Of a stretch of 64,000 nucleotides of DNA, positions 2,147 through 41,654 are shown one piece after another. The stretch is from contig JAVVDU010000002.1 of NCBI GenBank assembly GCA_032251515.1, positions 17,936 through 81,935 on the forward strand, in the 5' to 3' direction. A program made the position numbers and the translations under genes. Position 1 is the stretch's first letter; the number at the start of each line of letters is the position of its first letter. The stretch is from Gemmatimonadota bacterium. GTDB lineage: Bacteria > Gemmatimonadota > Gemmatimonadetes > Palauibacterales > Palauibacteraceae. Below the pieces are notes generated by a model, which worked only from the letters and a program-made list of their open reading frames with translations, was not told where the DNA came from and searched no databases.

Positions 2147-2148
2147 CC

Positions 2149-22297: not shown

Positions 22298-22932
22298 CCG
22301 GCGCGTATCGCCACTCGCGGCGCCGTCTGGTCGAGGCGCTCGCCGCGGGCGGCATCGAGGACCTCGCGGTGCTGCACGCCTTTCACGCGGTGCCGCGCCA
22401 CCTGTTCGTGCCCGAGGCGGTGCGGCACCGCGCCTACGAGGACGCGGCGCTTCCGCTGGGCCACGGACAGACGATCTCGCGTCCCGCCGTGCATGCCGCG
22501 TTCCTGCAGCTCGCCGGGCTGCAGGGCCACGAGCGCGTGCTGGAGATCGGGACGGGGTCGGGCTTCCAGACGGCCCTCCTGGCCACCCTGGCGCGCGAAG
22601 TGTGCACGGTCGAGGTCGTCCCCGCGCTCGCGGACGAGGCCCGGCGGGCCGTCACGGCCCTCGGGTTCGAGAACGTGAGCTTCCTCACCGGAGACGGGAG
22701 CGCGGGCTGGCCGGCCAGGGCCCCGTTCGACGTGATCCTGGTGGGCGCGGCGGCCCCCGAGGTGCCGGCGGCGTTGCAGGAGCAACTCGCGGTGGGCGGC
22801 CGGCTCCTCATCCCGGTCGGAGACACGCGGCGGCAGGTGCTCCTGCAGGTGGACCGGACAGGGGATGGCTGGTCCACGCGGGAGGTGGAGCCGGCGCGGT
22901 TCGTCCCCCTGGTGGGAGAGGGGGGCTGGTGA
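22279..22932 (+). CDS. pcm: protein-L-isoaspartate O-methyltransferase Pcm
   Basis: VLEIGTGSGFQTALLA SAM motif. PCMT fold. Confidence 0.85.
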   Translation: MDPGAVAGAYRHSRRRLVEALAAGGIEDLAVLHAFHAVPRHLFVPEAVRHRAYEDAALPLGHGQTISRPAVHAAFLQLAGLQGHERVLEIGTGSGFQTALLATLAREVCTVEVVPALADEARRAVTALGFENVSFLTGDGSAGWPARAPFDVILVGAAAPEVPAALQEQLAVGGRLLIPVGDTRRQVLLQVDRTGDGWSTREVEPARFVPLVGEGGW

Positions 22933-23549
22933 CGGAACCGGCCACCCCCCCGGCGAAGCGGGACAACGTGTTGCGGCGTCTCTATCACTGGGTGCTCGGC
23001 TGGGCGGACCGGCCCGGGGGCACCGCGGCCCTGTTCGGCATCGCGTTCGCCGAGGCATCCTTCTTCCCGATCCCGCCCGACGTCCTGCTGATTCCGCTCG
23101 CGCTGGGCCGCGTGCGACGGTCGCTGTGGTTCGCGCTCGTCTGCACCTTGGGATCGGTGTTCGGAGCCATGGCCGGTTACGCGATCGGCGCCTTCCTGTT
23201 CGCCTCCGTCGGCCGACCACTGCTCGAGTTGTACGACGGCATGGACCAGTTCGCGCACCTGGGTCGCCTGTTCGACGAGAACCTCCTGCTGACCCTCGGT
23301 ACGGCGGGGTTCACGCCGATCCCGTTCAAGGTGTTCACGATCGCCTCGGGGGCGTTCGCCGTCTCCTTTCCCGCCTTCGTGGCCATCTCCGCGCTGAGCA
23401 GGGGAGCACGCTTCTTTTTCGTGGCGGGGCTGATCCGCGCCTTCGGGGAGCCGATCCGGGGCTTCATCGAGCGGTACTTCAACATCCTCTCGGTGGCCTT
23501 CGTGGCACTGCTGGTTCTCGGATTCCTGGCCGTCTCCATCCTGTTCTGA
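22929..23549 (+). CDS. YqaA/DedA-family (SNARE-associated) membrane protein
   Basis: GTGA overlap with pcm. Conserved FFPIPPDVLLIPLAL segment. 206 aa with several TM helices. Confidence 0.6.
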   Translation: MTEPATPPAKRDNVLRRLYHWVLGWADRPGGTAALFGIAFAEASFFPIPPDVLLIPLALGRVRRSLWFALVCTLGSVFGAMAGYAIGAFLFASVGRPLLELYDGMDQFAHLGRLFDENLLLTLGTAGFTPIPFKVFTIASGAFAVSFPAFVAISALSRGARFFFVAGLIRAFGEPIRGFIERYFNILSVAFVALLVLGFLAVSILF

Positions 23550-24584: not shown

Positions 24585-24601
24585 GGTATATTATGTAAAC
24601 T
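24574..24601. other. dif: dif chromosome-dimer resolution site (XerC/XerD target): ACGGCGCATAA-GGTATA-TTATGTAAACT
   Basis: 21/28 identity to E. coli dif. Fits the cross-phylum consensus ATAAnrTAyATTATGThAAnT. Located in the convergent gap where coding strand switches. Overlaps the stop codon of the 23751..24584 gene. Confidence 0.6.
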
Positions 24602-24658
24602 AGCGCTCCGGTCTCTCCGCCCGCGTTCCTGTTCCGGGCGCGGCCGTCTCTTCCCCGC

Positions 24659-25426
24659 TCACAGCCGCCCGAAGATCGACGCGAGGCGCAGGGCCCACAC
24701 CCGCCACACGGCCTCCCGCACGATCGCCCCCGACATCTTGCTCTGGCCGTCCGTGCGGTCGCTGAACACGATCGGGACCTCGTGCAGGCGGAACCCCTTC
24801 TTCCAGGCCCGGAAGTCCATCTCGATCTGGAACGCGTAGCCGGTGCTCCCCACGCGCTCCAGGGGGATCGCCTCCAGCACCTCGCGCCGGAAGCACTTGA
24901 AGCCGCTCGTGGCGTCCGACAGGGGCATCCCGGTGATCCAGCGCGCGTACCGGTTGGCGAACCAGGACAGGAGGAGCCGGCCCATCGGCCAGTTGATCAC
25001 GTTCACGCCGCGCACGTAGCGGGACCCGATGACCAGGTCCGCCTCCTCGCGGGCCGCCCGCAGGAGCTCGGGCAGGTAACGCGGGTCGTGCGAGAAGTCC
25101 GCGTCCATCTCGCACAGGAAAGCGTAGCCCCGCTCGAGGCCCCATGCGAACCCGGCGAGGTAGGCCGAGCCGAGTCCCTGTTTCCCGGCGCGATGCAGGA
25201 CGTGCACCCGGGGCGACTCGGTCGCGAGCTGATCCGCGATCCGCCCCGTGCCGTCCGGCGACGCGTCGTCCACCACGAGGACGTCGATGCGGGAATCGGC
25301 CGCGAGGATCCGCGGCAGGATGCCCGGCAGGTTCTCGGCCTCGTCGTACGTCGGGAGGACGACGAGCGTCCTCTCGCGGCCCGTCCGGCCTTCACCCTCG
25401 CGCCTGTCGCTGCCGTGCTCGCTCAT
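24659..25426 (-). CDS. Dpm1-like GT2 polyprenyl-phosphate mannose (or hexose) synthase, soluble type
   Basis: LVVLPTYDEAENL, VLVVDDASPDGT, DADFSHDP and SRY..GV...W (Dpm1/Ppm1 catalytic domain). No C-terminal TM. Start at 25426 verified by residue count. Confidence 0.75.
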   Translation of the reverse strand: MSEHGSDRREGEGRTGRERTLVVLPTYDEAENLPGILPRILAADSRIDVLVVDDASPDGTGRIADQLATESPRVHVLHRAGKQGLGSAYLAGFAWGLERGYAFLCEMDADFSHDPRYLPELLRAAREEADLVIGSRYVRGVNVINWPMGRLLLSWFANRYARWITGMPLSDATSGFKCFRREVLEAIPLERVGSTGYAFQIEMDFRAWKKGFRLHEVPIVFSDRTDGQSKMSGAIVREAVWRVWALRLASIFGRL

Positions 25427-26469
25427 TTCCTCTCGTCTGCCGTCTCCGAGGGGCCGCGCCCTCCGCCTGTGTCGGGTGGGCCGCCGTCGATCCGCCGCGA
25501 CGTCTCCGCCCTCCCGCCGGCCCGCGGGAGCCAGGCGACCCCGAGGGCGCCGAGCTCCGCCGCGGTCGACCACAGCCGGGCGACCGCGGCGAACGCCGCC
25601 GCCGGAGCGAGGGAAACGGGGCCCGTCGCCACGAGGAGGCCTGCCAGAGCCCCTTCCCTCACCACCAGGCCGCCGGGCGCGAACAGTGCCAGGTAACCGG
25701 CCAGGTAGGCTGCGGCGAACAGGCCGGCGAACCTCCACGGGCCGGGGTCCGCGGGCCCGCCCACCCCGCGCCACAGGAGCCACAGTCCCACGCCCTGCAG
25801 GAGCCAGGCGGCCACCAGGGCCGCGCCGCCGGACCACAGGGCCCGGGGCCCGGATCGCGCCAGCGCGGCCGTCTCCCCTTCCCCGAAGCGGCGTGCCAGC
25901 AGACGGGCCAGCCGCACGGCCGGTGCAGGCCGCAGGAGAAGACCGAGCCCTGCCACGACGAGCGCCGCCGCCCCCACCCGCATCCAGGCGCCGCCCGGCG
26001 TGCCCCCGAGGGACGCCAGGGCGACGGCCGCCCCCGTGCCCAGCACGAGGACCTGGAAGAGCGCTGCCGCGGCGAGGGCGGCCGCGCCCGCGCCCCGGCG
26101 CTCGCGCATGTAGGCGGCGAGGCCGGCGAGCTGCCACACCTTGCCGGGAACGTAGCGGCCCAGGTTCGTGGTCATCCACACCCGGATGCCCTCTGCCGTG
26201 CCGCAGCTGCCTCCCAGACGCCGGAAGATACCGACCCACACCCGTCCCATCACGAACAGGGAGAGGATTCCGGGGCCCAGCGAGGCGAGGGCCCAGCCCG
26301 GGCGCAGGCGCCATCCCGCTGCGGCGAGGTCGGCCCGCAGCCGGCCGAGCTCGCCGCCCTGCCGCGCCCACAGCGCGCCGAGAAACGCCAGCGACAGGAC
26401 CACGAACGCCCACCCCCCGAGACGCAGGCGGCGGGACGCGCGCCGGGGCTCAGCCGGCGTCCCGGACAC
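25423..26469 (-). CDS. flippase-like polytopic membrane protein (UPF0104 / lysyl-PG-synthase-TM-like domain)
   Basis: Start is a GTG at 26469 (V19 of ORF 25423..26523). About 8 TM helices. ATGA-coupled to the Dpm1-like gene. Family call is from general similarity. Confidence 0.4.
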   Translation of the reverse strand: MSGTPAEPRRASRRLRLGGWAFVVLSLAFLGALWARQGGELGRLRADLAAAGWRLRPGWALASLGPGILSLFVMGRVWVGIFRRLGGSCGTAEGIRVWMTTNLGRYVPGKVWQLAGLAAYMRERRGAGAAALAAAALFQVLVLGTGAAVALASLGGTPGGAWMRVGAAALVVAGLGLLLRPAPAVRLARLLARRFGEGETAALARSGPRALWSGGAALVAAWLLQGVGLWLLWRGVGGPADPGPWRFAGLFAAAYLAGYLALFAPGGLVVREGALAGLLVATGPVSLAPAAAFAAVARLWSTAAELGALGVAWLPRAGGRAETSRRIDGGPPDTGGGRGPSETADERK

Positions 26470-28765
26470 GGCCTGGTCCGAGAACGCGCCAGCGGCGCAC
26501 CGCCGGGACGAGCAGCACGGCAAGGGCGGCGGCCAGGCCGAGTCCCGTGAGCGTGAAGCCGAGCCGGAATTCGTCGGGAGCGTAGCGGAACCGGACCACG
26601 TGCCGGCCCTCCGGCACCACGACGGCCCGGAAGGCGACGTTGGCCCGCAGCACCTCGAGCTCCTCGCCGCCCTCCAGCTCGGCCCGCCACGCCGGGTGCC
26701 AGATCTCGCTCACGAACAGGAGGCCGCCCGTCTCGGCCTCCACCTCCAGGTCCACCGCGTCCGGCTCCCAGCGGACCACCCGCGCCGCGCCACGCCCGGC
26801 CGGCGGCGCGCGATCCGTCTCCACAACCACCGCGTCGGCCGGCCGCTCGGCCCGCAGGACGGCCTGCAGGGCGGCCGCCGTGTCCCGCGTCGCCCGCACC
26901 GCGGCGGGAAACCAGGCGTGCGGCCCGTCTCCGGCCACCTCGTGCAGCACGCCGCGCGGGCCGGCGGAGACGGGCTCGAGCAGCGGCGACTCCACCGGCC
27001 CGTCGGTAACGACGAAGCGCAGGTCGAACAGGGGCCACAGACCCGGGTCGCCGAGATTCCGGTACGACAACCCGCCGGTGAGCCGCTCCGTCCACTCGAG
27101 CCGGAAGTTCTGGCTGCCGGTGACGGACGGCACGCGGGCACCCATCAGCTCGTTGGGGCCGAACGTGCGCCGGCCGGGGACCGGGAACACGCGCTCCCCG
27201 GGGGCCAGCTCCGCGCGCATGCGGTCGATCGACTCCGCCGCCGGGAAGGCCTCCTCCGGGGTCAGCGTGGCCAGGTAGCGCCGGTCCACGCGCCACAGGT
27301 CCGCCACGAGGAGCGCGAGGACGGCGAGCAGCGCCGCCGGCTCCGGCCAGCGGCCGCTCGCCACCCCGCGGGCCGCCGCCCCCACCAGGCCGAGCCCGGC
27401 GAGCAGGAGGAGGCCGTTGAGCCGCAGCGCCCCGGTGGCCGCCTCGCCGGGAGCGCCCGCCCCGGCCGGCACGAGGGCCGTCCCGGCCCAGCGCATCATG
27501 CCGGCGGGCGCCAGGGCCGCCGCCAGGCCGAGCAGGAGCAGCGGCGCGGCGGCCACGAGGAGACCCACCCACGGCAGGCCCCCCTGCGTCGCGCGCGCCG
27601 CCCGGATGCGCTCCCAGCCGAAGGCGGCCAGGAGAGCGACGAACAGGGCCACCGGGCCGAGCATCATCGAGGGGGCCCGGAACCGCGAGATGAAGGGGAT
27701 GAGGTGGAAGGCGAGGCGGTGCACCGGGGTCGCGGCCCCCAGCGCGAACAGCAGGCCGAGCGCCGCCAGGGCCCCGAGGGCCGCCACTCGACCGTCGCGG
27801 CGGGCCCGCGTCAGGCCGACCAGGGCGAGCGCGACCGGCACCGCGCCCAGGTACTCCGTGTGGAGCTTGAACGGGTTCGCCCCGCGGTACGTCTCCAGCG
27901 ACCCGAGGAGGTCCGGGAGCACCAGCGCCGTCAGCTCGCCCGGCGGCAGCGCCCAAGACGCGGCGAAGCCGTACCCGGCCTCGCCGGTGCCGCCGCGCAC
28001 GGCGATCTCGAGAATCCGCCACGTCGGCACGAGCTGCGCCGCTCCCACCAGCGCCGCCAGCACGAACGCCCCGGCCACCGCGCCCCCGGCGTGTACGGCG
28101 CGGGACCTGCCCTCCTCCCGGGCCAGCATGGCGATCCGGACCAGCGCGTAGAACAGGAGCAGCAGCGACGAGAAGTACATCAGCTGCACGTGGGGCGTGA
28201 AGATCTGCAGCGCCACGACGAGGCCGAAGCCCGCGAACCAGGCGACCCGGCCCGACGCCAGCCCTTTCTCGAGACAGGCGAAGGCGAGCGGCGTCAGCAC
28301 CATCACGAACATGCGGCCGTCGTGGCCGCCGTACAGGGTGGAGACGACGAAGCCGGTCAGCAGGAACGAGATGCCGGCGACCGCGGCGGCGCTGCGCCCC
28401 AGCCCGAGGGCACGCGCGGCGAACCAGGCGAACACGCCCGACAGGAACGTGTGCAGGACGAACGTCCACCCGATGGCGCGGTGCAGCGGCAGGACCAGGT
28501 ACAACAGGCTCGTGGGATAGAAGACCGGGCCCGGCAGGATGGCCAGGTACGGCAGTCCCCCGTACACGAACGGGTTCCAGAGCGGAAAGCCCCGGCCCGC
28601 CTTCAGCTCCTCGACGGCGAAGGCGCGCAGGTGGTACGCCTGGTCCAGCATGTCCGTGCCGAACAGCATGCGATCCGGCCGCAGGACGAACTCCGCGTAG
28701 AACCCCAGCGTGAGGACCGCGCAGGCCGCCGCGAACAGGGCCCCGGCCGGCGGGCGCCGGGTCAC
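26450..28765 (-). CDS. YfhO-family GT-C-type membrane glycosyltransferase (772 aa)
   Basis: GTG start at residue 217 of the 987-aa ORF. Upstream of that the ORF is the antisense of the methyltransferase gene. N-terminal 10-13 TM helices with a large C-terminal periplasmic domain. YfhO-like length and topology. Confidence 0.55.
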   Translation of the reverse strand: MTRRPPAGALFAAACAVLTLGFYAEFVLRPDRMLFGTDMLDQAYHLRAFAVEELKAGRGFPLWNPFVYGGLPYLAILPGPVFYPTSLLYLVLPLHRAIGWTFVLHTFLSGVFAWFAARALGLGRSAAAVAGISFLLTGFVVSTLYGGHDGRMFVMVLTPLAFACLEKGLASGRVAWFAGFGLVVALQIFTPHVQLMYFSSLLLLFYALVRIAMLAREEGRSRAVHAGGAVAGAFVLAALVGAAQLVPTWRILEIAVRGGTGEAGYGFAASWALPPGELTALVLPDLLGSLETYRGANPFKLHTEYLGAVPVALALVGLTRARRDGRVAALGALAALGLLFALGAATPVHRLAFHLIPFISRFRAPSMMLGPVALFVALLAAFGWERIRAARATQGGLPWVGLLVAAAPLLLLGLAAALAPAGMMRWAGTALVPAGAGAPGEAATGALRLNGLLLLAGLGLVGAAARGVASGRWPEPAALLAVLALLVADLWRVDRRYLATLTPEEAFPAAESIDRMRAELAPGERVFPVPGRRTFGPNELMGARVPSVTGSQNFRLEWTERLTGGLSYRNLGDPGLWPLFDLRFVVTDGPVESPLLEPVSAGPRGVLHEVAGDGPHAWFPAAVRATRDTAAALQAVLRAERPADAVVVETDRAPPAGRGAARVVRWEPDAVDLEVEAETGGLLFVSEIWHPAWRAELEGGEELEVLRANVAFRAVVVPEGRHVVRFRYAPDEFRLGFTLTGLGLAAALAVLLVPAVRRWRVLGPGRVRDAG

Positions 28766-29514
28766 GCGGCGCTCTCCGGCTTCCGGACGACGAAGAACCA
28801 CTGGGGCGAAAGCGCCCGCAGCACGAGGCGCCGCGGAACGCCGGGCAGTCGCCGGAAGAGGCGCCAGGCACGCACGAGGGCCGGGCCACGCAGCCGTCCG
28901 AGCAGGTCGTCGATCGCCGCCTCCGTGATGTCGTCCACCTCGAATCCCGCCGCCTCCATCCGCTCGCGCAGCGCCCGGTAGCCGAGGAACCGGATCCCCT
29001 CGTAGCGGCGGCCACGCCCGGAGAGCCGAAGGTACAGGGTGGCGGCGGGGGCCGGAAGCCAGCTCAGGAACGGCAGCCGGTAGTGGGGCTCGAGCACCGC
29101 GAAGCGGCTGCCGGCCGAGACGTAGGCCCGGCCGCCGCGCCGGAGGACGCGGAACGTCTCGCGTAACAGCCCCGCCACGTCCGGCACGTGCTCGTACAGG
29201 TGGTTGAGCAGCGCGAAGTCGACCGTGCCGTCCCGCAGGGGAAGGCGCAGCACGTCGGCTCCCACCATCCGCGACCGGTCGACCACGAACGACAGGTCGA
29301 TCTCGAAGCCGAGCACGGGGTGCCCGGCCCGTCGCTCGAGGGCGGCGCGGATGAGCCCCGTGCCCGCCCCGAGATCCGCCGCGACGGCGGCCTCCCGGAG
29401 CCACGGCGCGCACAGGTGCCAGATCACCTCTGCCTTGCGTTCGCGGCTGCGAAGGTACGCCTCGGAAGAGACGAGAGCGCCGTAGCGGTCCGCGCCGGCG
29501 TGCTCACGCCCCAC
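28762..29514 (-). CDS. class I SAM-dependent methyltransferase
   Basis: Motif I DLGAGTG. Methyltransf_11/23-like. GTGA overlap with the yfhO-like start. Confidence 0.65.
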   Translation of the reverse strand: MGREHAGADRYGALVSSEAYLRSRERKAEVIWHLCAPWLREAAVAADLGAGTGLIRAALERRAGHPVLGFEIDLSFVVDRSRMVGADVLRLPLRDGTVDFALLNHLYEHVPDVAGLLRETFRVLRRGGRAYVSAGSRFAVLEPHYRLPFLSWLPAPAATLYLRLSGRGRRYEGIRFLGYRALRERMEAAGFEVDDITEAAIDDLLGRLRGPALVRAWRLFRRLPGVPRRLVLRALSPQWFFVVRKPESAA

Positions 29515-30718
29515 GGCGGCGCTCCAGGGCCGTACGGTAGGCCTCCTCCGTCCGGTCCAGCACCGCCCGCCAGCCGAACCGTTCCCGGGCGCGCACGCGG
29601 CCCCGCCGCGCCATGTCCCGCGCCGCGGCCGGGTCCGCCGCGATGCGCTGGAGGGCTTCCGCCAGCGCTCCCGGGTCGCCGGGCGGCACGAGCAGCCCGG
29701 TATGGCCCGGCTCGACGATGTCCGGAATCCCGCCGACGGCGCTCGCTACCACCGGGCGCTCGTAGCGCAGGGCCTCGAGGAGCACCACGCCCAGCCCCTC
29801 GGTGTCGCCCTTCGCATCGACCACGGCGGGCAGCACGAACACGTCGGCCCGGGCGTACTCCTCCTCGAGCCTCCGACGCGACACGAAGCCCGGCATCCGG
29901 ACCCGCCCGGCGAGGCCCAGGGACTCGATCTCCCGGCGGATCGACCGTTCCCGCTCCCCTGCCCCGATCACCGTGAGCTCGGCGCCCGACGCGGCCGGCA
30001 GGCGCGCCACCGCCCGCAGGAGGATCTCCACTCCCTTCCGTTCCACGAGGCGTCCCACGAACAGGATGCGCAGGCGGTCCGGGTCCGCCCCGGCGGCCCG
30101 CGCGACGGGAGCGCCGTCGTCCTCGATCGCGCTGCCGTAGGGAACGACGGACACGGGCCCCGGGGCGAGCGCCTGCACGGCCGCCGCCGTGGAGCGGGAG
30201 ATCGCCGTCACCGCGTCCGCCGTGCGGACCGTCCAGCGCAGGAACGGCAGGAGGGCGGGCAGCCGGTGCCGCACCCAGTTCAGCTCCACGCTGTAGAAGC
30301 TGCACACGACGCCGGCCTTGCCCCCGGACCCGTGCCGCGCGGCAGCCCCGAACAGGGCGTGCGGCATCGGCCAGTGCACGTGCACCACGTCGAGCCCCCG
30401 GCGCCCCAGCCGGTGCGCCGCGTCGGCGCCGGCAGCGAGGTAAGCCGGCAGCAGGAACCCCTGCAGCGGCCGGCGGCGCAGGCGGTCCGGCACGGTCTCG
30501 TCGTGCGTGAGCGTCTCCAGGGCGGCGGGCGCGTAGCGGAAGCGGTGCACGGGGAGAGCGCCCGCGGCGCCCGGCTCCGGTCCGCCGCGGTAGGAAGGCG
30601 CCAGGACGACCGCGTCGTGGCCGGCATCCCGCTGCCGGCGCACCAGCTCGACCAGCCACGGGGTGATCGGATCCCGTTCGTGCCGGGGCCACGCCGTGAC
30701 GACGTGCAGGACGCGCAT
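29504..30718 (-). CDS. GT4-family glycosyltransferase (GT-B fold)
   Basis: C-terminal GT4 signature ...ADVFVLPA..EG.G.V.LEA...RPVVAS..GG..D.V. Confidence 0.8.
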   Translation of the reverse strand: MRVLHVVTAWPRHERDPITPWLVELVRRQRDAGHDAVVLAPSYRGGPEPGAAGALPVHRFRYAPAALETLTHDETVPDRLRRRPLQGFLLPAYLAAGADAAHRLGRRGLDVVHVHWPMPHALFGAAARHGSGGKAGVVCSFYSVELNWVRHRLPALLPFLRWTVRTADAVTAISRSTAAAVQALAPGPVSVVPYGSAIEDDGAPVARAAGADPDRLRILFVGRLVERKGVEILLRAVARLPAASGAELTVIGAGERERSIRREIESLGLAGRVRMPGFVSRRRLEEEYARADVFVLPAVVDAKGDTEGLGVVLLEALRYERPVVASAVGGIPDIVEPGHTGLLVPPGDPGALAEALQRIAADPAAARDMARRGRVRARERFGWRAVLDRTEEAYRTALERRRGA

Positions 30719-30743
30719 GACGGAAGGCTGCGGCCGCGCCGCG

Positions 30744-31721
30744 TCAGCGGGGACCGGACGGGTTCCGGGCCGCCCTCACCTCGCCGCGCAGCTGCTCGAC
30801 TTCGGCACGGAGCCCGGCCACCAGCTCGCCCACGAGCCCCGCCACGAACAGCAGCGCGCCCAGGAGGACGAGCAGCAGGACGAGCGTGAGCAGCGGGCGG
30901 AAACCGGTGTCGCGCACGAACCGGAGCCACAGCGCCGCGAGGCCCACTACCCCGCCCGCGGCGAACAGGACGAGTCCCGTCGTGCCGAAGAACATCAGGG
31001 GCTTGCGCGCGAACACGAGCTGGAACCACACGGCGAGCAGATCGAGGGTACCGACGAGGATCCGGCCGCCGCCCCGGTACTTGGAGGTGCCGTGGCGCCG
31101 GGGGTGCAGGGCGATGTCGATCTCCCCGACCCTCCAACCCCGCACGTGTGCCAGGACGACGAGGTAGCGATGCCAGTCCTCCCGGAGCTGCAGGTCGTCC
31201 AGCACCTCGCGACGCAAAGCCTTCATCGCGTTCATGTCGTGCACCGGGACGCCGAACAGCCGGCGGGCCAGCCCGTTGTAGATCCCCGACACGAGACGCT
31301 TCTCGTAGCGGCCCACCTTGCGGCCGGTCACCACGTCCAGACCGCCTCCGGACTCCAGGGCATCCAGGAAGCGGGGGATCTCCTCGGGGGAATGCTGCAG
31401 GTCGGCGTCGAACACGACGAGGACGGGAGCCTCCGTGGCGGCGGCCCCGGTGACGATCGCCGACGTCTTGCCGCGGTTCCGCCGGTGGCGGAGCAGGCGC
31501 ACCCGGTCCAGCCCCGCCTCGGCCGCCGCGGCGCGCGCCGCGGCGAGCGTGTCGTCCGTCGAGCCGTCGTCGACGAGCACGACCTCTCCCGCGAGTCCGT
31601 GGCGGCCGAACGTGGCGGCCAGCTCGCGGAACAGGTCCGGCATGTTCGCGGCCTCGTCGAGGGCCGGCACGAGGACGGCGAAGCGCGGCGGCGGAGGAGC
31701 CACGCCCCGTTCCGGGCTCAT
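30744..31721 (-). CDS. GtrB/ArnC/CsbB-type GT2 polyprenyl-phosphate glycosyltransferase with C-terminal double TM
   Basis: GT2 DxD (VVFDADLQHSPEE) and VLVPALDEAANM. Two C-terminal TM helices. ATGA overlap with the rpoN stop. Confidence 0.75.
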   Translation of the reverse strand: MSPERGVAPPPPRFAVLVPALDEAANMPDLFRELAATFGRHGLAGEVVLVDDGSTDDTLAAARAAAAEAGLDRVRLLRHRRNRGKTSAIVTGAAATEAPVLVVFDADLQHSPEEIPRFLDALESGGGLDVVTGRKVGRYEKRLVSGIYNGLARRLFGVPVHDMNAMKALRREVLDDLQLREDWHRYLVVLAHVRGWRVGEIDIALHPRRHGTSKYRGGGRILVGTLDLLAVWFQLVFARKPLMFFGTTGLVLFAAGGVVGLAALWLRFVRDTGFRPLLTLVLLLVLLGALLFVAGLVGELVAGLRAEVEQLRGEVRAARNPSGPR

Positions 31722-33157
31722 ACGCGCTTGCGCATCCGGGCGGCGAGGATCCCGAGCTGATCGCGGTACTTCGCGACCGTCCGGCGGGCGATCTGCACTC
31801 CCTCGCCCTTCAGGATGTCCACGATGGCCTGGTCGGTGAGCGGCTTCTTCTCGTCCTCCTCGGCGACGAGCTTCTGGATGCGGGCCCGGATCCCCCGGGC
31901 CGACACGTCCTCCCCGAAGTCGGTCGACAGGCCGCTGGAGAAGAAGAACTTCAGGGGGAGCACGCCGCGGGGCGTCTGCACGTACTTCTCGTTCGTGACG
32001 CGCGACACGGTCGACTCGTGCATGTCGATGTGCTCGGCCACCTCGCGCAGGGTCAGCGGCCGCAGGTGCTCGACGCCCTTCTCGAAGAACTCCCGCTGCC
32101 GGTCGACGATGAAGTGCATCACCTTGAGCATCGTCTGCCGCCGCTGCTCGATCGCCTGGATCATCCACTGCGCCGAGCTGAGCTTCTTCGCGATGAACGC
32201 CTTGTTGTCGCCCTGGTACTTGTTCTTGTCCGCCGCGACCTCGCGGTAGGCCCGCGACAGCTTGAGGCGCGGCAGGGACGAGTCGTTGTGGTACACGTAG
32301 TACTCCCCGTCCACCTTCTCGACCGTCAGGTCAGGGGTGACGTAGTTGTCGCTCGCGTCCGCGTGCCGCAGCCCGGGCTTGGGGTCGAGGCGGGCGATCT
32401 CGTCGGCGGCCGCCTGGACCTCCCGCGCCGGGATCCCGTGCTCCTTCGAGAGCTCGCTCCAGCGGTGAGAGACGAGCTGCTCGAAGTGATCCCGGACGAT
32501 ACGGAACGAGAGCGTCTCCTCCTCGCCGCGGTCGCGCAGCTGGATGAGCAGCGTCTCGCGCAGGTCCCGCGCGCCCACGCCGGTCGGCGAAAACCCCTGG
32601 ATGACCGTCAGAATCGCCTCCGCCTCCTCCACCGTGAACGGCTCCAGATCCTCGCGCATCTCCGGCTCGGCCGAGGCGAGCCAGTCGTTCGCGGCGACGA
32701 CCACGTCCTCCAGCGGGCAGGTGAGGAATCCCTCGCGGTCGATGTTGCCGATGATCTCCTCGCCGAGAAACCGCTCGCGTGGCTCGAGGCGGGTGAGGTT
32801 CAGCTGCTCGCGGAGGTGGTCCCACAGGTCGGGCGGCGCGGCGGGCGTGGGCAGGAAGTCCTGGCGCTCCTCGAAGTCGCCCCGGCGTCCGCCGGCCTCG
32901 AAGCCGTTGAGGAGGATCTCCTCCCAGTCCATCTCGTCCTCTGCCTGCGGCTCCTCTTCCTTGGTCTCCTCCTCCTCTTCCTCGACCGGCTCGGCCAGCT
33001 CGAGGAAGGGGTTCGCCATCATCTCCTGCTTGAGGTGCTGCTGCAGGTCGAGGAGCGGCATGTAGAGAAGGTCCATCGCCTGGTAGAGGCGTGGATTGAT
33101 CTTGAGTTCCTGCCGCATTCCGAGGCTCTGGCTGAGCCCTCTGCGCATGTTGGCCAT
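31718..33157 (-). CDS. rpoN: RNA polymerase sigma-54 factor RpoN
   Basis: N-terminal activator-interacting region I (LSQSLGMRQELKINPRLYQAMDLL), acidic region II, and the RpoN box ARRTVAKYR at the C-terminus. Confidence 0.9.
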   Translation of the reverse strand: MANMRRGLSQSLGMRQELKINPRLYQAMDLLYMPLLDLQQHLKQEMMANPFLELAEPVEEEEEETKEEEPQAEDEMDWEEILLNGFEAGGRRGDFEERQDFLPTPAAPPDLWDHLREQLNLTRLEPRERFLGEEIIGNIDREGFLTCPLEDVVVAANDWLASAEPEMREDLEPFTVEEAEAILTVIQGFSPTGVGARDLRETLLIQLRDRGEEETLSFRIVRDHFEQLVSHRWSELSKEHGIPAREVQAAADEIARLDPKPGLRHADASDNYVTPDLTVEKVDGEYYVYHNDSSLPRLKLSRAYREVAADKNKYQGDNKAFIAKKLSSAQWMIQAIEQRRQTMLKVMHFIVDRQREFFEKGVEHLRPLTLREVAEHIDMHESTVSRVTNEKYVQTPRGVLPLKFFFSSGLSTDFGEDVSARGIRARIQKLVAEEDEKKPLTDQAIVDILKGEGVQIARRTVAKYRDQLGILAARMRKRV

Positions 33158-33268: not shown

Positions 33269-33994
33269 TCAGAGCTGAAAATCGAGTCCGAGATACATCT
33301 TCCGGGCCTCCGGATCCTCGACGAGCCGCTGTGCGGGCCCCTCGATGTGGATCCGCCCGTTGAACAGGAGGTAGGCCCGGTCGGTGATCGACAGCGTCTC
33401 GCGGACGTTGTGGTCGGTGATCAGCACCCCGAGCCCGCGCTCCCGCAGCTCCGCCACGATGCGCTGGATGTCGTCCACGGCGATCGGGTCCACGCCCGCG
33501 AACGGCTCGTCCAGGAGCATGAACTTCGGTCGGGTGACGAGCGCGCGGGTGATCTCCAGGCGCCGCCGCTCTCCTCCCGACAGGCTGTCGGCCACGTTGT
33601 CGCGCAGGTGGCCGATGGACAGCTCGTCCAGGAGCTCGTCGAGCCGCCGCTCGCGCTCCTTCCGCGTCAGGTCGAGCGTCTCGAGGATGGCCAGCACGTT
33701 CTCGGCTACCGTGAGCCGCCGGAACACGGACGGCTCCTGCGACAGGTAGCCGATCCCCGCGCGGGCGCGCTTGTACATCGGCACCTTCGTCAGGTCTGTC
33801 GCATCCAGGAGCACCCGTCCCGCATTGGCCTTGAGCAGGCCCACGATCATGTAGAAGGTGGTCGTCTTCCCTGCCCCGTTGGGGCCCAGCAGGCCGACGA
33901 TCTCGCCCTGGCGGACCTCGAGGCTCACGCCGTCCACCACGCGGCGGCGCCCGAACTCCCGCACCAGGTTCTCCGCCCGCAGCACGCTGCTCAT
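33269..33994 (-). CDS. lptB: LPS export ABC transporter ATP-binding protein LptB
   Basis: Walker [11 protein letters not shown], signature [11 protein letters not shown], Walker [11 protein letters not shown]. 241 aa. Immediately upstream of rpoN. Confidence 0.9.
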
Positions 33995-35342
33995 GGGATC
34001 CCTCCCCCGTCGCCGGGCTCCAGGAACACGCCGATCGCGTCGCTGCCCCGCGAATGAGCGGGCTGCCCGTCCTCGAACGCGATCTCGATGCGCGATCCCA
34101 GCATGTAGTTCTTCGACGGAGTCGTCGCGGTGGCCGTGTCTCGCACCGCCGCCGTGAACGACCGGGCCCGGCCGATCGCGACCAGCCGGTCGATCCAGAC
34201 CTCGCCGGCGGTTCCCTCGGCGGTTCCCTCCGCCTCGGGATCCTCGGGTGCCTGCGTGGGCGCGGCCGGGCGGAACGCGGCCCGTACCGTGTCGCCCGCC
34301 ACCCAGTTCGCTCCCGGCCTCGTGTCGAGGACCGGCTCGGCGAGCGGGGCGTCCGGGGCTGCCGCCGCGGAGTCGACTTCCGCCGCCGCGGCGCGTCCCA
34401 CCGCGGTCAGGGAGTCCGCGCGTCCGTCGACGAACCCGAACACGATGGAATCCCCGGCGAGCACGAACTGCTCGGATGACGCCAGGGAGCGGCCGCGGCC
34501 GAACGCCCACAGGGTCTCCACGACGTCTCCGGCGACCACGGCGCGAATCTGCTCGGAATGCATCCGGTGCCCCTCGCCCGTCGCGCGGGCATCGCCGAAC
34601 GAGTGGATCGTGCGCAACTCTCCCACCTCGAACCCGGCCCGGATGCTGTCGCCCTCGAGCTCGAACGCCGGCCCGGTCACGACGGGACGCCCGTACAGGA
34701 CGGCCAGTGCGACCGCCTCCGAGAAGCGGGCGCTGTCGGCCACCGCGCGGATGTCCCCGCGGACCATCACGACATCGCCGCGCGCGAAGGCCTCGGTTTC
34801 GCCCAGGAACTCCGAGACGTCGGCGTCGATCACGGCCGTCGAGATCGCTCCGCTCTCGCCCCGGCCGGAGGGGAGGGTCATTCGCGGCCGTCCCGTGGCG
34901 ACGGTTCGCGATCCCGCGAACGGCGTCCGGAAGAAGCGCGCCGCGGGGCCCTCGAGGGTGGCCCCGGTGGCCAGGCGCACCAGTCGCACCGACCCTTCCG
35001 CCAGGACCTGGTCGGTTCGCCCGAAGAAGGTGAGCCGGTCGGAGTTCAGGGTCCGCGTGGTGTCGCGGTAGCGCACGGAGCCGATCATCACGGCGCGCTC
35101 CAGCGCGGGCCGCCACACGGCGCTGTCTCCGGTCATCACCGCGTCCCCGCAGGTGACCGTCACGGGGCCCGACAGGTAGGCCGTCAGCGTCCCGGAGCCG
35201 TCCGGATCGGGGCGTTCCACGCGCGGGCCCGCACGCACGATGTCGGGCGCGCAGCGCTGCACGCCCTGCGCCCGCAGCCCGCCCCCCGTCGGCACGGCCG
35301 CCGCGAGCGTCAGCGCGGCCGCCGCGACCCTGGCGAGTCGGC

Positions 35343-35346
<4 letters not shown>
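33991..35346 (-). CDS. lptA: long LptA/OstA-N-like periplasmic protein (451 aa, probably tandem OstA-N folds)
   Basis: Signal peptide [19 protein letters not shown]. Repeated beta-jellyroll-like segments. Position between the lptC-like gene and lptB. ATGA overlap with lptB. Confidence 0.55.
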
Positions 35347-37639
<2,293 letters not shown>

Positions 37640-38404
37640 TCAGTTCGGGTCGCGGGCCGCGAGCAGGCGCTCGGCCCTCTCCAGGTCTTCCGGCACATCC
37701 ACGGCCGCCTCGCAGGGACCCGCTACGGCGACGAATACCCCGATGCCCGCCTCCAGGGCCCGCAACTGCTCCAGGCGCTCGAGGCGCTCGAGTCGGGACG
37801 GGGGCAGCGAGACGAAGCGCTCCAGGGCCGGGCGGGTGAAGGCGTACACGCCCACGTGTCGCAACCAGGCACCCGGACCGGCGCCGGCCGAGGCCGCGTC
37901 GAGCCCGTCCTCCGACCACGGGACCGGGGCGCGGCTGAAGTAGAGGGCGCGGCCGTCCGCGGCCCGGACCACCTTCACGTGCGACGGCGAACGCCATTCC
38001 CGCTCCGCCGCGAACGGCGTGGCGAGCGTCGCCACCCCGGTCCGTCCCGCACGCACCGGGGCCAGCACGGCCTCGAGGTGGGCGGGGCTCAGGAACGGCT
38101 CGTCGGCCTGCAGGTTCAGGATCACGTCGAATCCCGCGGCCTCCGGCCGTCGTGCCGCCTCGGCGACCCGGTCGGTACCGGACGGATGCTCCGGGCTCGT
38201 CATCACGACCGTCCCCCCCAGGTCCCGGACCCGCATCGCGATCTCCGGGTCGTCGGTGGCCACCCAGATCTCGTCGATGCCGGAGGCCCGCCGCGCCGCG
38301 CGCCACGTCCACTCGATGAGGGGGCGGCCGGCCAGGGGCTGGAGGGGCTTCCGGGGGAGGCGGCGGCTCCCGATCCTCGCGGGAAGCACGCAGAGGACGG
38401 TCAT
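37640..38404 (-). CDS. kdsB: 3-deoxy-manno-octulosonate cytidylyltransferase KdsB
   Basis: N-terminal PARIGSRRLPRKPL. CMP-Kdo synthetase fold. 254 aa. Confidence 0.85.
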   Translation of the reverse strand: MTVLCVLPARIGSRRLPRKPLQPLAGRPLIEWTWRAARRASGIDEIWVATDDPEIAMRVRDLGGTVVMTSPEHPSGTDRVAEAARRPEAAGFDVILNLQADEPFLSPAHLEAVLAPVRAGRTGVATLATPFAAEREWRSPSHVKVVRAADGRALYFSRAPVPWSEDGLDAASAGAGPGAWLRHVGVYAFTRPALERFVSLPPSRLERLERLEQLRALEAGIGVFVAVAGPCEAAVDVPEDLERAERLLAARDPN

Positions 38405-38448
38405 CGGTCGCGCGCATACGGGGCCGGCCGGATTCCGTTCACGCCCCG

Positions 38449-38479
38449 CAAGGTAGGGCGGCGGCGAAGACGCTGTCAA
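38449..38479 (-). promoter_or_regulatory. candidate sigma-70-like promoter TTGACA-N18-TACCTT upstream of kdsB
   Basis: Perfect -35 hexamer on the minus strand. Weak -10. About 45 nt upstream of the kdsB start. Confidence 0.2.
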
Positions 38480-40604: not shown

Positions 40605-41654
40605 TCATGCCCTCGGATGATACCTCCGGTGTTCTTCCTGCAGGTACGTCCGGTCCACGTGGGTGTAGATCTGCGTGGTCGAGATGTCCGCGTGTCCCAG
40701 CATGTCCTGAACGGCCACCAGGTCCGCCCCCCCCTCCAGCAGGTGTGTGGCGAAGCTGTGCCGGAAGGTGTGCGGCGTCACCCGCACCCGGAACTCCACC
40801 CCCCGGAGCGCCGCCAGCGCCCGGCCCCGCTCCACAGCCGCCCGGACGATCTTCCAGGCGCCCGTCCGGCTCAGCGCCCCGCCCCGTTGGTTCAGAAACA
40901 GGGCCGGCGCGGGCGACCCCCGTCCGGCGAGGTCGATGCGCCGCTCGGGAAGGTACCGTTCCAGCGCCCGGGCCGCACCACCGCCGAAGGGCACGATCCG
41001 GGCCTTGCCGCCCTTGCCCCGCACGCTCAGGAGCCCCTCGTCCCGCGCCACGTCGCGGAGCTGCAGGCCGGTGAGCTCGGAGATGCGAAGTCCCGCCCCG
41101 TACAGCACCTCCAGCATCGCGGCATCACGCGCCGCGGCCGCCCGGTCCTTCGTCCGGAGGCGAGCGGCATCGGCGGTCCGCTGCGCGCGTTCGGCCGCCG
41201 CATCCAGGATGCACTCGACCTGCGCCACGGTCATGACGCCGGGCAGAGGGCGTCCGGGACGCGGTGCCTCCAGGCGTTCCGAGGGATCCTCCTGCAGGTG
41301 TCCCTCGCCGACGAGGAAGCGGAAGTAGGCCCGGCAGGCCGACCGGGCCCGGGCCGCCGTGCGGGCCCCGAGCCCTCGCTCCGCCAGGGAGTGCATCCAG
41401 TCGCGGAGCAGCGCGTAGTCGAATCCCGAGGGGCCCGGCAGGCCCCGGGCGAGCGCGAAGTCGACGAGGTTCCGGCAGTCGCGCTCGTAGGCTTCGATCG
41501 TGTTGGAGGCGAGGCGCCGCTCGAAGCGCAGGTAGTCCCGGAACGGTCCGAGGAGAAAGGCGACAGCCTCGTCCTCGCCCGGCCGGCTTCCCGCCCCGGC
41601 GCCGGCTCCCCGGCCCGGGGTCACTCGTCCTCGTCCGCGTCGCGACTGCGCCAC
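40605..41654 (-). CDS. xerD: tyrosine site-specific recombinase XerC/XerD
   Basis: N-terminal SAM-like domain (NTIEAYERDCRNL). Catalytic R..HxxR..Y (VTPHTFRHSFATHLL...IYTH). GTG start with a Gly/Arg-rich N-terminal extension. Confidence 0.8.
   Translation of the reverse strand: MAQSRRGRGRVTPGRGAGAGAGSRPGEDEAVAFLLGPFRDYLRFERRLASNTIEAYERDCRNLVDFALARGLPGPSGFDYALLRDWMHSLAERGLGARTAARARSACRAYFRFLVGEGHLQEDPSERLEAPRPGRPLPGVMTVAQVECILDAAAERAQRTADAARLRTKDRAAAARDAAMLEVLYGAGLRISELTGLQLRDVARDEGLLSVRGKGGKARIVPFGGGAARALERYLPERRIDLAGRGSPAPALFLNQRGGALSRTGAWKIVRAAVERGRALAALRGVEFRVRVTPHTFRHSFATHLLEGGADLVAVQDMLGHADISTTQIYTHVDRTYLQEEHRRYHPRA

Follow-up and report, generated by a model that had tools for sequence, protein, structure and literature searches.

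A conserved Gemmatimonadota gene block that probably encodes a multi-component periplasmic glycosylation system with a YfhO-like GT-C protein

An operon of six genes located directly downstream of rpoN in a Gemmatimonadota MAG probably encodes a multi-component undecaprenyl-phosphate-sugar-dependent periplasmic glycosylation system. It was studied in a contig stretch of 64,000 nt (hereinafter, the window). Gene content, folds, conserved residues, operon structure, and synteny were obtained in the analysis, with genuine open reading frames told apart from spurious ones by GC3, the window having a GC content of 73%. All genes lie on the minus strand, in the order rpoN, GT2a, GT4, SAM-methyltransferase, YfhO-like GT-C, UPF0104 flippase-like protein, GT2b (Table 1), and this order recurs in approximately 80 Gemmatimonadota species-level loci, hence the arrangement is not due to chance. 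Most relatives have seven genes in this operon. The first-pass annotation, restricted to 26450–31721, had described a two-enzyme module of a GT2 and a YfhO-family GT-C. This pair is indeed present there, co-operonic and on the minus strand, and is recognized by Pfam and PDB matches, but the description was too narrow, as a second GT2, a UPF0104 protein, a GT4, and a methyltransferase also belong to the operon. The GT4 and methyltransferase genes lie inside the flagged interval and had been omitted, and the operon runs on downstream of it, to 24659.

Table 1. Genes of the studied operon and its surroundings in the window.
Feature	Position	Strand	Assignment and basis
GT2a, 325 aa	30744..31721	-	membrane-anchored polyprenyl-phosphate GT, ArnC/GtrB/CsbB type
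GT4, 404 aa	29504..30718	-	cytoplasmic retaining glycosyltransferase, Pfam Glycos_transf_1
Class I SAM-dependent methyltransferase, 250 aa	28762..29514	-	Pfam Methyltransf_11, Methyltransf_23
YfhO-like GT-C, 771 aa	26450..28765	-	Pfam PF09586, GT-C fold model
Stand-alone MprF-type flippase domain (LPG_synthase_TM = UPF0104, PplT/YbhN family), 348 aa	25423..26469	-	PF03706
GT2b, 255 aa	24659..25426	-	soluble DPM1/DPMS-like polyprenyl-phosphate hexose synthase; Glycos_transf_2, Pyrococcus DPMS
rpoN (sigma-54)	31718..33157	-	NCBIfam TIGR02395 7e-128
lptB	33269-33994	-	NCBIfam 1.9e-109
LptA-like gene, 451 aa	33991-35346	-	Pfam LptD_N 1e-4
lptC	35343-35978	-	NCBIfam LptC 4e-9
pyrG	35903-37639	-	co-directional with LPS genes kdsB, lptC, LptA-like, lptB
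kdsB	37640-38479	-	NCBIfam 2.9e-77
lpxD, lpxC-fabZ, lpxA, lpxB, lpxK	1-6893		diderm context
DedA/VTT-domain protein	22929..23549	+	Pfam VTT_dom 8.6e-9

Intergenic gaps within the operon do not exceed 25 nt, and start and stop codons overlap (ATGA or GTGA) at four of the six junctions; for example, the ATG of GT2a overlaps the rpoN stop codon (ATGA), the GTG start of the YfhO-like gene overlaps the upstream stop codon (GTGA), and the ATG of GT2b overlaps the stop codon of the flippase-like gene (ATGA). The 4-nt overlap between rpoN and the next GT2 gene is repeated in gene calls of three related loci (L001, L003, L005), and rpoN and GT2a appear to be translationally coupled. Across all 12 genes of the array, kdsB through GT2b, gaps reach 111 nt at most. 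No promoters or terminators were callable in a scan of the GC-rich operon DNA, and therefore co-transcription was judged by gene spacing: given this spacing and the order conserved in approximately 80 loci, the GT-A and GT-C genes may share one transcription unit. The diderm context proposed in the first-pass annotation is confirmed by the lpx genes near the window start and by kdsB, lptC, the LptA-like gene, and lptB, which together span 33269–38479. Two genes past the operon, on the opposite strand, we observe a DedA/VTT gene whose position is kept in most related loci; judging by context only, its product possibly recycles undecaprenyl phosphate.

The YfhO-like protein is 100% identical to the NCBI MAG protein RRA92_00995. 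The open reading frame had been identified correctly in the first-pass annotation, while its length is 771 aa (GTG start), one codon shorter than the 772 aa given there. The YfhO assignment is upheld by the Pfam profile PF09586, whose gathering score is passed with 32.1 vs. 28.5 bits, although the direct match is limited to the last 75 residues (profile positions 761–835 of 835); the first 500 aa, when compared to Pfam alone, matched no model at E ≤ 10. Relatives of the protein score 24–52 bits against the same profile, and PF09586 is precomputed in 119 of 120 homologs among the matches listed. P0268, a homolog that matches profile positions 52–594, aligns with the window protein end to end (26% identity, E = 1e-61). 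The Gemmatimonadota proteins have already been named YfhO or DUF6541 by NCBI.

According to hydropathy and the AF2 model, approximately 13 TM helices of the YfhO-like protein end by residue 492, residues 495–735 form a beta-rich soluble domain of approximately 240 aa, and the last TM helix occupies 736–760. The soluble domain, situated between the last two TM helices, is predicted to be periplasmic, as the first-pass annotation had anticipated, its side being assigned by GT-C homology and the positive-inside rule. Residue 39, located in the first outer loop within the motif MLFG-x-D/E-M, is acidic (D or E) throughout an alignment of 28 sequences, and D150, D286, and E305 are invariant in the same alignment; D/E39 appears to correspond to the acidic residue, or modified DXD motif, that GT-C enzymes are expected to conserve in this loop. 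The predicted GT-C membrane fold rests on a confident model. Its best structural match is mycobacterial AftD, and AftD, STT3, and PMT are nearer than ArnT, which is also found among the matches, while a sequence search of PDB chains with the YfhO-like profile yielded no match. As these structural neighbors (AftD, STT3, PMT) are GT-C transferases, identity of the protein as an O-antigen ligase or polymerase was rejected.

The YfhO family as a whole is very large, with its profile matching 71,461 cluster representatives, and for some homologs, OMP or lipid A acyltransferase genes are found on the same low-GC contig. Characterised members have teichoic acid or a Ser/Thr-rich protein region as their acceptor. 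PF09586 is reported to be largely conserved in Bacteroidota, where YfhO is predicted to be the O-oligosaccharyltransferase of general protein glycosylation (preprint, bioRxiv 10.64898/2026.07.27.740950). Hence, the first-pass view of YfhO as a Gram-positive speciality is outdated, and there is nothing unusual in a diderm carrying YfhO.

Both GT2 proteins of the operon match Pfam Glycos_transf_2 (GT2a, 4.5e-24; GT2b, 1.4e-29). GT2a has hydrophobic segments near the C terminus (248–298) and matches ArnC (1e-27), PgfS, and AglJ in NCBIfam. Among solved structures, ArnC is nearest to it (2e-25 over residues 9–307), and GtrB sll0501 is also matched in PDB (7.5e-10). GT2b has no TM segment and is similar to Pyrococcus DPMS (PDB, 7.5e-33) in the catalytic domain only; its orthologs are 58–81% identical across the phylum.

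We observe clear differences in the neighborhoods of the two GT2 genes. GT2a is located within 200 bp of rpoN in all 52 loci, the YfhO-like gene adjoins the flippase-like gene in 74 out of 75 loci, and the latter adjoins GT2b in 65 out of 71. Thus, the constant partners of the YfhO-like gene are the flippase-like gene and GT2b, and not GT2a, which the first-pass annotation had paired with it. A second, PMT_2-like GT-C (GTCx) occurs alongside GT2a in 39 of the 49 complete loci, and GT2a is retained in all ten complete loci that have no second GT-C. The window operon has no GTCx, and with two GT2s and a single GT-C it leaves one donor with no assigned transferase in view. Natural fusions are observed as well: in P0495 the flippase domain is joined to a GT2 sharing 61% identity with GT2b and only 32% with GT2a, while PMT_2 and YfhO-like domains are fused in P0169, P0180, P0208, and P0264. 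The YfhO-like protein and GTCx were rejected as close paralogs, since hhalign of their profiles was not significant. GTCx aligns with the N-terminal PMT_2 domain of the P0264 fusion with only 57% probability (E = 1e-4), its Pfam hints (PMT_2, Glyco_transf_22) are sub-threshold, and its profile matched no PDB chain by sequence.

The set of YfhO-like, UPF0104, GT2, GT4, and methyltransferase genes is also found around distant homologs on low-GC contigs, which, judging solely by their GC content (35–50%), would come from outside Gemmatimonadota. The same set is present downstream of rpoN on a contig with named close relatives from Gemmatimonadales.

The flippase-like protein passes the PF03706 threshold (40.4 bits vs. 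GA 33.4), and the NCBI labels for it are “lysylphosphatidylglycerol synthase domain-containing” or “flippase-like”. Its AF2 model has pLDDT 84.3, and the top three PDB fold matches are MprF, with probabilities of 0.82–0.99 and weak E-values (~0.1); nothing was found among PDB chains by sequence. The 348 aa comprise the PF03706 domain only. The C-terminal aminoacyl-PG synthase domain of MprF (DUF2156) is absent, and an MprF-type aminoacyl-lipid system was rejected for this reason. The protein is assigned to the stand-alone PplT/YbhN type and is neither of GtrA nor of Wzx type. It may act as a flippase, as a membrane partner of GT2b, or as both; to our knowledge, no UPF0104 protein has been demonstrated to flip a polyprenyl-phosphate sugar, the tested cases being phospholipids.

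From these data we infer a lipid carrier, sugars, GT2-to-GT-C pairing, a flipping step, and an acceptor. At the cytoplasmic face, membrane-anchored GT2a and soluble GT2b would each charge undecaprenyl phosphate with a sugar from a nucleotide sugar. The MprF-type flippase-domain protein would dock GT2b on the membrane and/or carry the lipid-linked sugar to the periplasmic leaflet. There, the YfhO-like GT-C would move the sugar onto an envelope acceptor via the conserved acidic residue of its first periplasmic loop, with the beta-rich periplasmic domain probably helping to grip the acceptor. In most relatives, the PMT_2-like second GT-C would likewise handle the other lipid-linked sugar. GT4 and the methyltransferase might be responsible for cytoplasmic building or tailoring of the acceptor or its sugars.

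Among the candidate acceptors, LPS (core or lipid A) is tentatively placed first, since the operon is coupled to rpoN right after kdsB-pyrG-lptC-lptA-lptB, and the order lptB, rpoN, cluster recurs in the Gemmatimonadota loci examined. The lptB-rpoN linkage is ancient, and the slot downstream of it may be merely a well-expressed housekeeping position. It is possible, albeit less likely than not, that the operon is the Gemmatimonadota periplasmic LPS decorator, in which the YfhO-type GT-C, joined by the PMT_2-type one in most lineages, adds sugars to lipid A or core, UPF0104 performs the flipping, and the whole unit is co-transcribed with lptCAB-rpoN as a housekeeping function. If so, the YfhO family would gain LPS as an acceptor class, and UPF0104 would gain polyprenyl-phosphate sugars as a substrate class. 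A literature search on YfhO with lipopolysaccharide, Gemmatimonadetes glycolipids or LPS, DUF6541, and LPG_synthase_TM with glycosyltransferase found nothing relevant.

A different, unlikely scheme is a lipoglycan or glycolipid assembly line resembling that of mycobacterial PIM/LM, in which GT4 glycosylates a membrane lipid (possibly methylated) at the cytoplasmic face, UPF0104 flips the glycolipid, and the GT-Cs extend it in the periplasm with the GT2a and GT2b sugars. GT4 (Pfam Glycos_transf_1, 1.5e-40, and Glyco_transf_4; no TM segment) has PimB', BshA, and PimA among its PDB relatives and weakly matches GlcNAc-PG synthase (NCBIfam), but these matches are generic. It is conserved within the cluster of Gemmatimonadota relatives and stays with the cluster on the distant contigs. 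The methyltransferase (Pfam Methyltransf_11, 8.5e-15, and Methyltransf_23) is, by its domain matches, a putative tailoring enzyme; it is absent or relocated in some relatives, and one Gemmatimonadales contig has acetyltransferases (Acetyltransf_6, Hexapep) between the GT4 and GT-C genes and no methyltransferase. The assembly line would agree with the resemblance of GT2b to DPMS/Ppm1, with AftD as the top structural match of the GT-C, and with the established or proposed role of UPF0104 proteins as lipid flippases (e.g., the GpgF and MprF proposals). However, the flippase-like gene stands beside GT2b and the GT-C, apart from GT4, and is fused to a GT2b-type domain in P0495, which fits handling of the donor better than handling of the acceptor, and no report of such a Gemmatimonadota lipoglycan was found in the literature searched.

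Protein O-glycosylation, with the YfhO-like GT-C glycosylating Ser/Thr residues of proteins in the periplasm or membrane, is improbable. A role in this process has been ascribed to YfhO-family enzymes of streptococci (PgtC2; PgfM1 and PgfM2 of the Pgf system) and is predicted for Bacteroidota YfhO in the preprint cited above. Still, no acceptor protein, sequon, or Ser/Thr-rich neighbor has been identified, the operon contains no Und-PP-oligosaccharide machinery (neither phosphoglycosyltransferase nor Wzx), the theme of the neighborhood is LPS rather than secretion, and similarity of the GT-C fold does not discriminate between acceptors.

A self-sufficient pair of GT2a and the YfhO-like protein, placing the undecaprenyl-phosphate sugar made by GT2a on a lipid A phosphate in the ArnC/ArnT fashion, is very improbable. 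Both genes are co-operonic beside lpt and kds genes, ArnC is the best solved relative of GT2a, ArnT appears among the structural matches of the GT-C, the YfhO-like protein is the sole GT-C of the operon in this lineage, and GT2a persists in the loci with no second GT-C; the constant partners of the YfhO-like gene, as described above, are others.

Equally poor are the chances of side-chain decoration of a capsule, EPS, O-antigen-like polymer, or peptidoglycan, comparable to Gtr-type O-antigen glucosylation or Gram-positive rhamnan decoration: triads of GT2, flippase, and GT-C classically act in this way, glycan binding is conceivable for the beta-rich periplasmic domain and has been suggested for AftD and S. 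aureus YfhO (PMC8035078), a Wzx-type flippase and several GT4s share a polysaccharide cluster with the distant homolog L089, and a Kiritimatiellota EPS cluster has yfhO, GT2, and gtrA, but polymerase, export, and chain-length genes are absent in and near the operon (window and syntenic loci), and strain-variable surface polysaccharides do not usually show such strict phylum-wide conservation or a housekeeping location.

These observations overturn nothing, and earlier work or annotation already covers the enzyme classes, the three-component logic, and the occurrence of YfhO homologs in diderms. If the proposed glycosylation model holds, it would assign a role to a gene block conserved across a widespread, little-studied soil and marine phylum, and would place a stand-alone MprF-type flippase domain in the same pathway as a YfhO-type transferase. 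This bears on the function of the very large and mostly uncharacterised YfhO-like family in diderms, as well as on what many stand-alone UPF0104 proteins translocate, and the UPF0104-GT2 and PMT_2/YfhO-like fusions provide concrete, testable partnerships.

Both three-component and multi-component transmembrane glycosylation systems have been described (PMC8035078). The operon shares with the CsbB-GtcA-YfhO system for teichoic acid glycosylation in B. subtilis, S. aureus, and Listeria a GT-A of the C55-P-sugar type and a YfhO-family GT-C in one operon, as well as the architecture of this GT-C, with 13 TM helices, a big outer loop before the last helix, and a PF09586 score above the gathering threshold; B. 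subtilis YfhO has 13 TM helices with the large extracytoplasmic loop between the last two (PMC5836110). In contrast to these systems, the host is an LPS-producing diderm, teichoic acid genes are absent from view, the flippase candidate is UPF0104 of MprF type and not of the GtrA family, a soluble GT2, GT4, and methyltransferase are added, coupling to rpoN and lptB is observed, and only the C-terminal 75 residues directly match the YfhO profile.

With ArnC-ArnE/F-ArnT the operon shares the LPS-related neighborhood and the logic of a GT2 loading polyprenyl phosphate, flipping, and transfer by a periplasmic GT-C, so that the likeness noted in the first-pass annotation holds for the architecture. 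It does not extend to the proteins: GT2a, with ArnC as its closest solved relative, scores 97.1 bits on the NCBIfam ArnC equivalog, far below the cut-off of 529, and the YfhO-like GT-C has no match to the PMT_2 and PMT Pfam models of ArnT/GT83 and resembles AftD, STT3, and PMT more closely in structure. Moreover, the operon and the neighboring genes scanned contain none of arnA, arnB, arnD, and arnE/F, i.e., neither Ara4N synthesis genes nor an ArnE/F-type flippase. A genuine Arn system was rejected on these grounds, that is, family scores below cut-offs and no Ara4N genes. The Rgt, Lgm, and Flm systems are related decorations of lipid A or core.

The mycobacterial and corynebacterial Ppm1-dependent pathways (PimA/PimB' GT4s; PimE, Mpt, and AftD GT-Cs) differ in phylum and envelope; the operon proteins do not belong to these families at the sequence level, and PI or arabinan genes are absent. 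Bacteroidota YfhO has in common with the YfhO-like protein the conservation of PF09586 across an FCB-group diderm phylum and approximately 12–13 TM helices, whereas its context is sahH or mtnN-luxS and its donor is Und-PP-oligosaccharide, the genes for which are absent from the studied operon.

Operons of GT4 and UPF0104 make GlcN-PG in P. aeruginosa (PMC12713373; bioRxiv 2022.03.11.483950). A cytoplasmic GT4 co-operonic with a UPF0104 protein is common to this GpgSDF system and the studied operon, and MprF is the best fold match of the UPF0104 protein, but here neither a deacetylase nor an aminoacyl-PG synthase domain is present, and UPF0104 is tied to GT2 and GT-C rather than to GT4. A similar association is known in archaea, where UPF0104 (arCOG00899), a PMT/STT3-like GT-C (arCOG00563), and an AglD-like GT2 (arCOG00897) are neighbors; AglD itself is a GT2-UPF0104 fusion, UPF0104 is a predicted flippase, and the system is tied to S-layer N-glycosylation (Makarova et al., 2015, PMC5898192). 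Both systems are predictions; the domain order in P0495 is reversed relative to AglD (UPF0104 followed by GT2), and the GT-C here is YfhO-like, but in both the three protein types are co-encoded and GT2-UPF0104 fusions are observed.

The window is GC-rich (68–78%), and mechanical ORF lists are therefore crowded with spurious frames; genuine genes were told from these by third-position GC. From 38479 to 24659 the minus strand carries an array of twelve co-directional genes, in the order kdsB, pyrG, lptC, a long LptA-like gene, lptB, rpoN, GT2a, GT4, SAM-methyltransferase (MT), a large membrane protein, LPG_synthase_TM (UPF0104) and GT2b (see the table). The lptB–rpoN gap (111 nt) is the widest in this array, gaps in the glycosylation block do not exceed 25 nt, and 4-nt start/stop overlaps are observed at four junctions: rpoN/GT2a (ATGA), MT/GT-C (GTGA), LPG_synthase_TM/GT2b (ATGA) and lptA-like/lptB. 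Both genes that the first-pass annotation had combined into a CsbB/GtrB plus YfhO module exist at the coordinates it gave, the larger product comprising 771 rather than 772 aa, as its true start is a GTG that overlaps with the preceding stop. For this protein and for the LPG_synthase_TM protein, NCBI has entries with 100% identity from a Gemmatimonadota MAG. The spacer that separates GT2b from the convergent TPR_21 gene includes a markedly AT-rich stretch (TAGTTTACATAATATACCTTATG) in a genome of 73% GC; this stretch may be a shared terminator or other signal, although a simple scan for terminators did not pick it up. Two further genes are unconnected to the glycosylation operon, one encoding a 435-aa protein with a faint bactofilin hint and otherwise without a family match, the other a radical SAM protein resembling TIGR03279 (1.6e-93, below the cut-off).

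Genes and other features of the window, with positions and strands
Feature	Position	Strand	Remark
lpxD, lpxC-fabZ fusion, lpxA, lpxB, lpxK	1-6893	+	
lpxC-fabZ	794-2146	+	single gene, 450 aa
Gfo/Idh/MocA oxidoreductase	2952-3938	+	between lpxA and lpxB
DUF374 protein	5158-5805	+	between lpxB and lpxK
Radical SAM protein	16894-18177	+	TIGR03279-like
DedA/VTT-family gene	22929-23549	+	
Spacer with AT-rich stretch	24585-24658		74 nt
GT2b	24659-25426	-	255-aa GT2
LPG_synthase_TM protein	25423-26469	-	348 aa
YfhO-like membrane protein	26450-28765	-	771 aa
SAM-methyltransferase	28762-29514	-	250 aa
GT4	29504-30718	-	404 aa
GT2a	30744-31721	-	325-aa GT2
LptA-like gene	33991-35346	-	between lptC and lptB, 451 aa
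435-aa protein	38521-39828	-	
DedA/VTT-family gene	41621-42247	-	

The sole Pfam match of the 771-aa protein is the YfhO model, passing the gathering score (32.1 vs 28.5 bits), with the alignment confined to the last 75 residues (profile positions 761–835 of 835). The same C-terminal restriction is seen in five relatives; the N-terminal 500 residues alone match no Pfam model at E<=10, and a sequence search of PDB chains with the protein gave no match. The AlphaFold model, built from an input of 28 homologs, is confident (pLDDT 86.9, pTM 0.89), and its predicted fold is unambiguously GT-C: Foldseek retrieves AftD (2e-9) and ArnT (4e-7), then STT3, PglB, AglB, Emb and AftA, with no YfhO structure among the matches. 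By hydropathy and the model, approximately 13 TM helices are followed by a 240-aa beta-rich soluble domain (495–735) and a last TM helix, which is the layout reported for B. subtilis YfhO (PMC5836110). Position 39 in the first outer loop is D or E throughout the aligned sequences (MLFG-x-D/E-M), while D150 (GHDGRMF), D286 (LPD) and E305 (HTEY) are invariant. One homolog, P0268, can be aligned with the 771-aa protein over the entire length (26% identity, E 1e-61), shares with it the motifs RM-x-FGTD and GH-x-GRM, and matches YfhO profile positions 52–594, so that, judged by sequence, it would link the membrane core to canonical YfhO. The 771-aa protein is therefore placed in the YfhO clan as a divergent representative: it formally qualifies, and its architecture and this one intermediate, rather than a direct full-length profile match, support the assignment. 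Relatives are named “YfhO family protein” or “DUF6541 family protein” at NCBI.

The nearest solved relative of GT2a is ArnC (2e-25, full length), followed by DPMS (4e-17) and Synechocystis GtrB (7.5e-10), and GT2a is predicted to be a membrane-anchored polyprenyl-phosphate glycosyltransferase. The proposed likeness of the operon to ArnC plus ArnT holds for the architecture and goes no further, as GT2a scores 97 bits against an ArnC family cut-off of 529. GT2b is soluble, without a TM segment, and its match to Pyrococcus dolichol-phosphate mannose synthase (7.5e-33) lies in the catalytic domain of the latter. GT4, with PimB', BshA and PimA among its relatives, is a putative generic cytoplasmic retaining transferase. 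The LPG_synthase_TM protein exceeds the Pfam threshold (40.4 vs 33.4 bits), MprF provides the top three PDB fold matches (probability 0.82–0.99, E ~0.1) of its AlphaFold model (pLDDT 84.3), and the aminoacyl-PG synthase domain is absent from it.

Relatives of the YfhO-like protein are encoded in at least 573 species-level genomes of a GTDB-based collection, and all 80 fetched loci with a taxon named in the title belong to Gemmatimonadota. Mapping of the window proteins onto the fetched loci by tblastn reveals a near-invariant order, lptB, rpoN, GT2a, (GTCx), GT4, (MT), YfhO-like, LPG_synthase_TM, GT2b, where genes in brackets may be missing. The gap between rpoN and GT2a is below 200 bp in 52/52 loci, and gaps below 400 bp separate the YfhO-like gene from LPG_synthase_TM in 74/75 loci and the latter from GT2b in 65/71. 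GTCx, a multi-pass membrane protein of 500–570 aa without a family assignment, for which PMT_2 and GT22 hints stay below threshold and PDB chains gave no match by sequence, is present in 39 of the 49 complete clusters, mostly right after GT2a (e.g., L003 4293–6002, L005 4435–6036). It was found neither in the clade of the window nor within the 64-kb window, and is probably a second GT-C, lost or relocated in this lineage. The methyltransferase is displaced or missing in some lineages, and one contig, with Gemmatimonadales as the nearest named relatives, has the order rpoN, GT2, GT4, Acetyltransf_6, Hexapep, a 460-aa protein, LPG_synthase_TM, YfhO-like, GT2. Thus, it is the tailoring enzymes that vary, with the transferases and the flippase-like protein being retained.

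The YfhO-like family is very large: among representatives of clusters formed at 50% identity, 71,461 match a profile of the Gemmatimonadota proteins at E<=1e-3, and 10,780 do so at E<=1e-30. Contigs of distant full-length homologs have 35–50% GC and neighbours from the same gene set: MT, LPG_synthase_TM and YfhO-like in L086; GT4, an unassigned gene, YfhO-like, LPG_synthase_TM, GT2 and Bac_transf, with an OMP beta-barrel gene close by, in L088; and a Wzx/GT4/MT polysaccharide-type cluster with a lipid A acyltransferase nearby in L089. Moreover, two kinds of natural fusions are observed. P0495 (607 aa, from a 66-kb metagenome contig) consists of LPG_synthase_TM and, after it, a GT2 with 61% identity to GT2b and only 32% to GT2a; being a single sequence, it may reflect an assembly frameshift across the ATGA overlap. 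In P0169, P0180, P0208 and P0264 (1209–1289 aa; e.g., the gene at L087 7554–11423) an N-terminal PMT_2-type GT-C and a full YfhO-like GT-C form one polypeptide. When GTCx was compared by hhalign with the N-terminal half of P0264, the alignment was weak (probability 57%, E 1e-4).

The lpx genes indicate that the organism is an LPS-making diderm. LPS is tentatively the leading candidate acceptor, a reading drawn from the gene neighbourhood, since the block, in translational coupling with rpoN, lies directly downstream of kdsB-pyrG-lptC-lptA-lptB and the lptB–rpoN–cluster order is kept in the examined loci. The data are also compatible with a glycolipid or lipoglycan initiated by GT4, for which GpgSDF (PMC12713373) and PIM/LM are precedents; with a protein acceptor modified by O-glycosylation, as for streptococcal PgtC2, the Pgf system and the YfhO prediction in Bacteroidota; and with another envelope polysaccharide.

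The oxidoreductase between lpxA and lpxB matches the UDP-GlcNAc 3-dehydrogenase NCBIfam model (6.7e-49, below the cut-off), and such a GnnA-like enzyme would suggest lipid A based partly on 2,3-diamino-2,3-dideoxyglucose. The lpxC-fabZ fusion (NCBIfam PRK13188, 1.3e-130) is typical of Bacteroidota and relatives, which would be consistent with placing Gemmatimonadota in the FCB group. The DUF374 protein shows a weak resemblance to acyltransferases and probably belongs among the neighbouring lipid A/Kdo pathway genes. The LptA-like protein has a weak LptD_N/LptA Pfam match at residues 76–236 only, and typical LptA is far shorter.

The first-pass interpretation is partly supported. A Gram-positive teichoic acid module had been considered unexpected in a diderm, a framing that no longer holds: PF09586 was noted in Bacteroidetes as early as 2018, is reported to be conserved for the most part in Bacteroidota and predicted to be essential there (bioRxiv 10.64898/2026.07.27.740950) and occurs in a Kiritimatiellota EPS cluster, and structure-based clustering has yielded a large YfhO-like family (PMC10584680). 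Our literature search found no account of this operon and none tying YfhO-type enzymes to LPS. The phylum-wide configuration of a YfhO-like GT-C, stand-alone UPF0104, soluble DPMS-like GT2, ArnC-like GT2, GT4 and a tailoring enzyme at lptB–rpoN appears undescribed; its component parts are known, and it represents a putative envelope pathway that is well conserved, can be tested and comes with two kinds of informative natural fusion, in a phylum that has received little study.

We propose a stepwise mechanism based on the textbook component set, its soluble-GT-A variant and the prediction of an archaeal trio. What the analysis itself demonstrates is gene content, folds, conserved residues, spacing, synteny and fusions. 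In this inferred scheme, including the carrier lipid, sugar identities, GT2-to-GT-C pairing, flipping step and acceptor, GT2b, with GT2a in parallel, would load sugars onto undecaprenyl phosphate; the UPF0104 protein would anchor GT2b and/or flip its product; the YfhO-like GT-C would transfer the sugar to a periplasmic acceptor; GTCx, where present, would act equivalently with the second donor; and GT4 and the methyltransferase would act on the cytoplasmic side. Of the two DedA/VTT-family genes, the minus-strand one resembles undecaprenyl-phosphate transporter UptA (1.1e-20, below the cut-off), and the plus-strand one keeps its position two genes from the operon in most related loci; either protein could recycle the lipid carrier freed by the GT-C.

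Three-component and multi-component transmembrane glycosylation systems consist of a GT-C, a flippase and a polyprenyl-phosphate sugar synthase, and in one variant a soluble GT-A depends on a separate membrane protein (PMC8035078). The adjacent YfhO-like, LPG_synthase_TM and GT2b genes match this composition, and the soluble variant fits, as GT2b has no TM segment and its gene overlaps that of the flippase-like protein, the two appearing fused in one lineage. Makarova et al. predicted an archaeal trio of UPF0104, a PMT/STT3-like GT-C and an AglD-like GT2, proposing UPF0104 as the flippase (PMC5898192), and the same three protein types are found together in the operon of the window.
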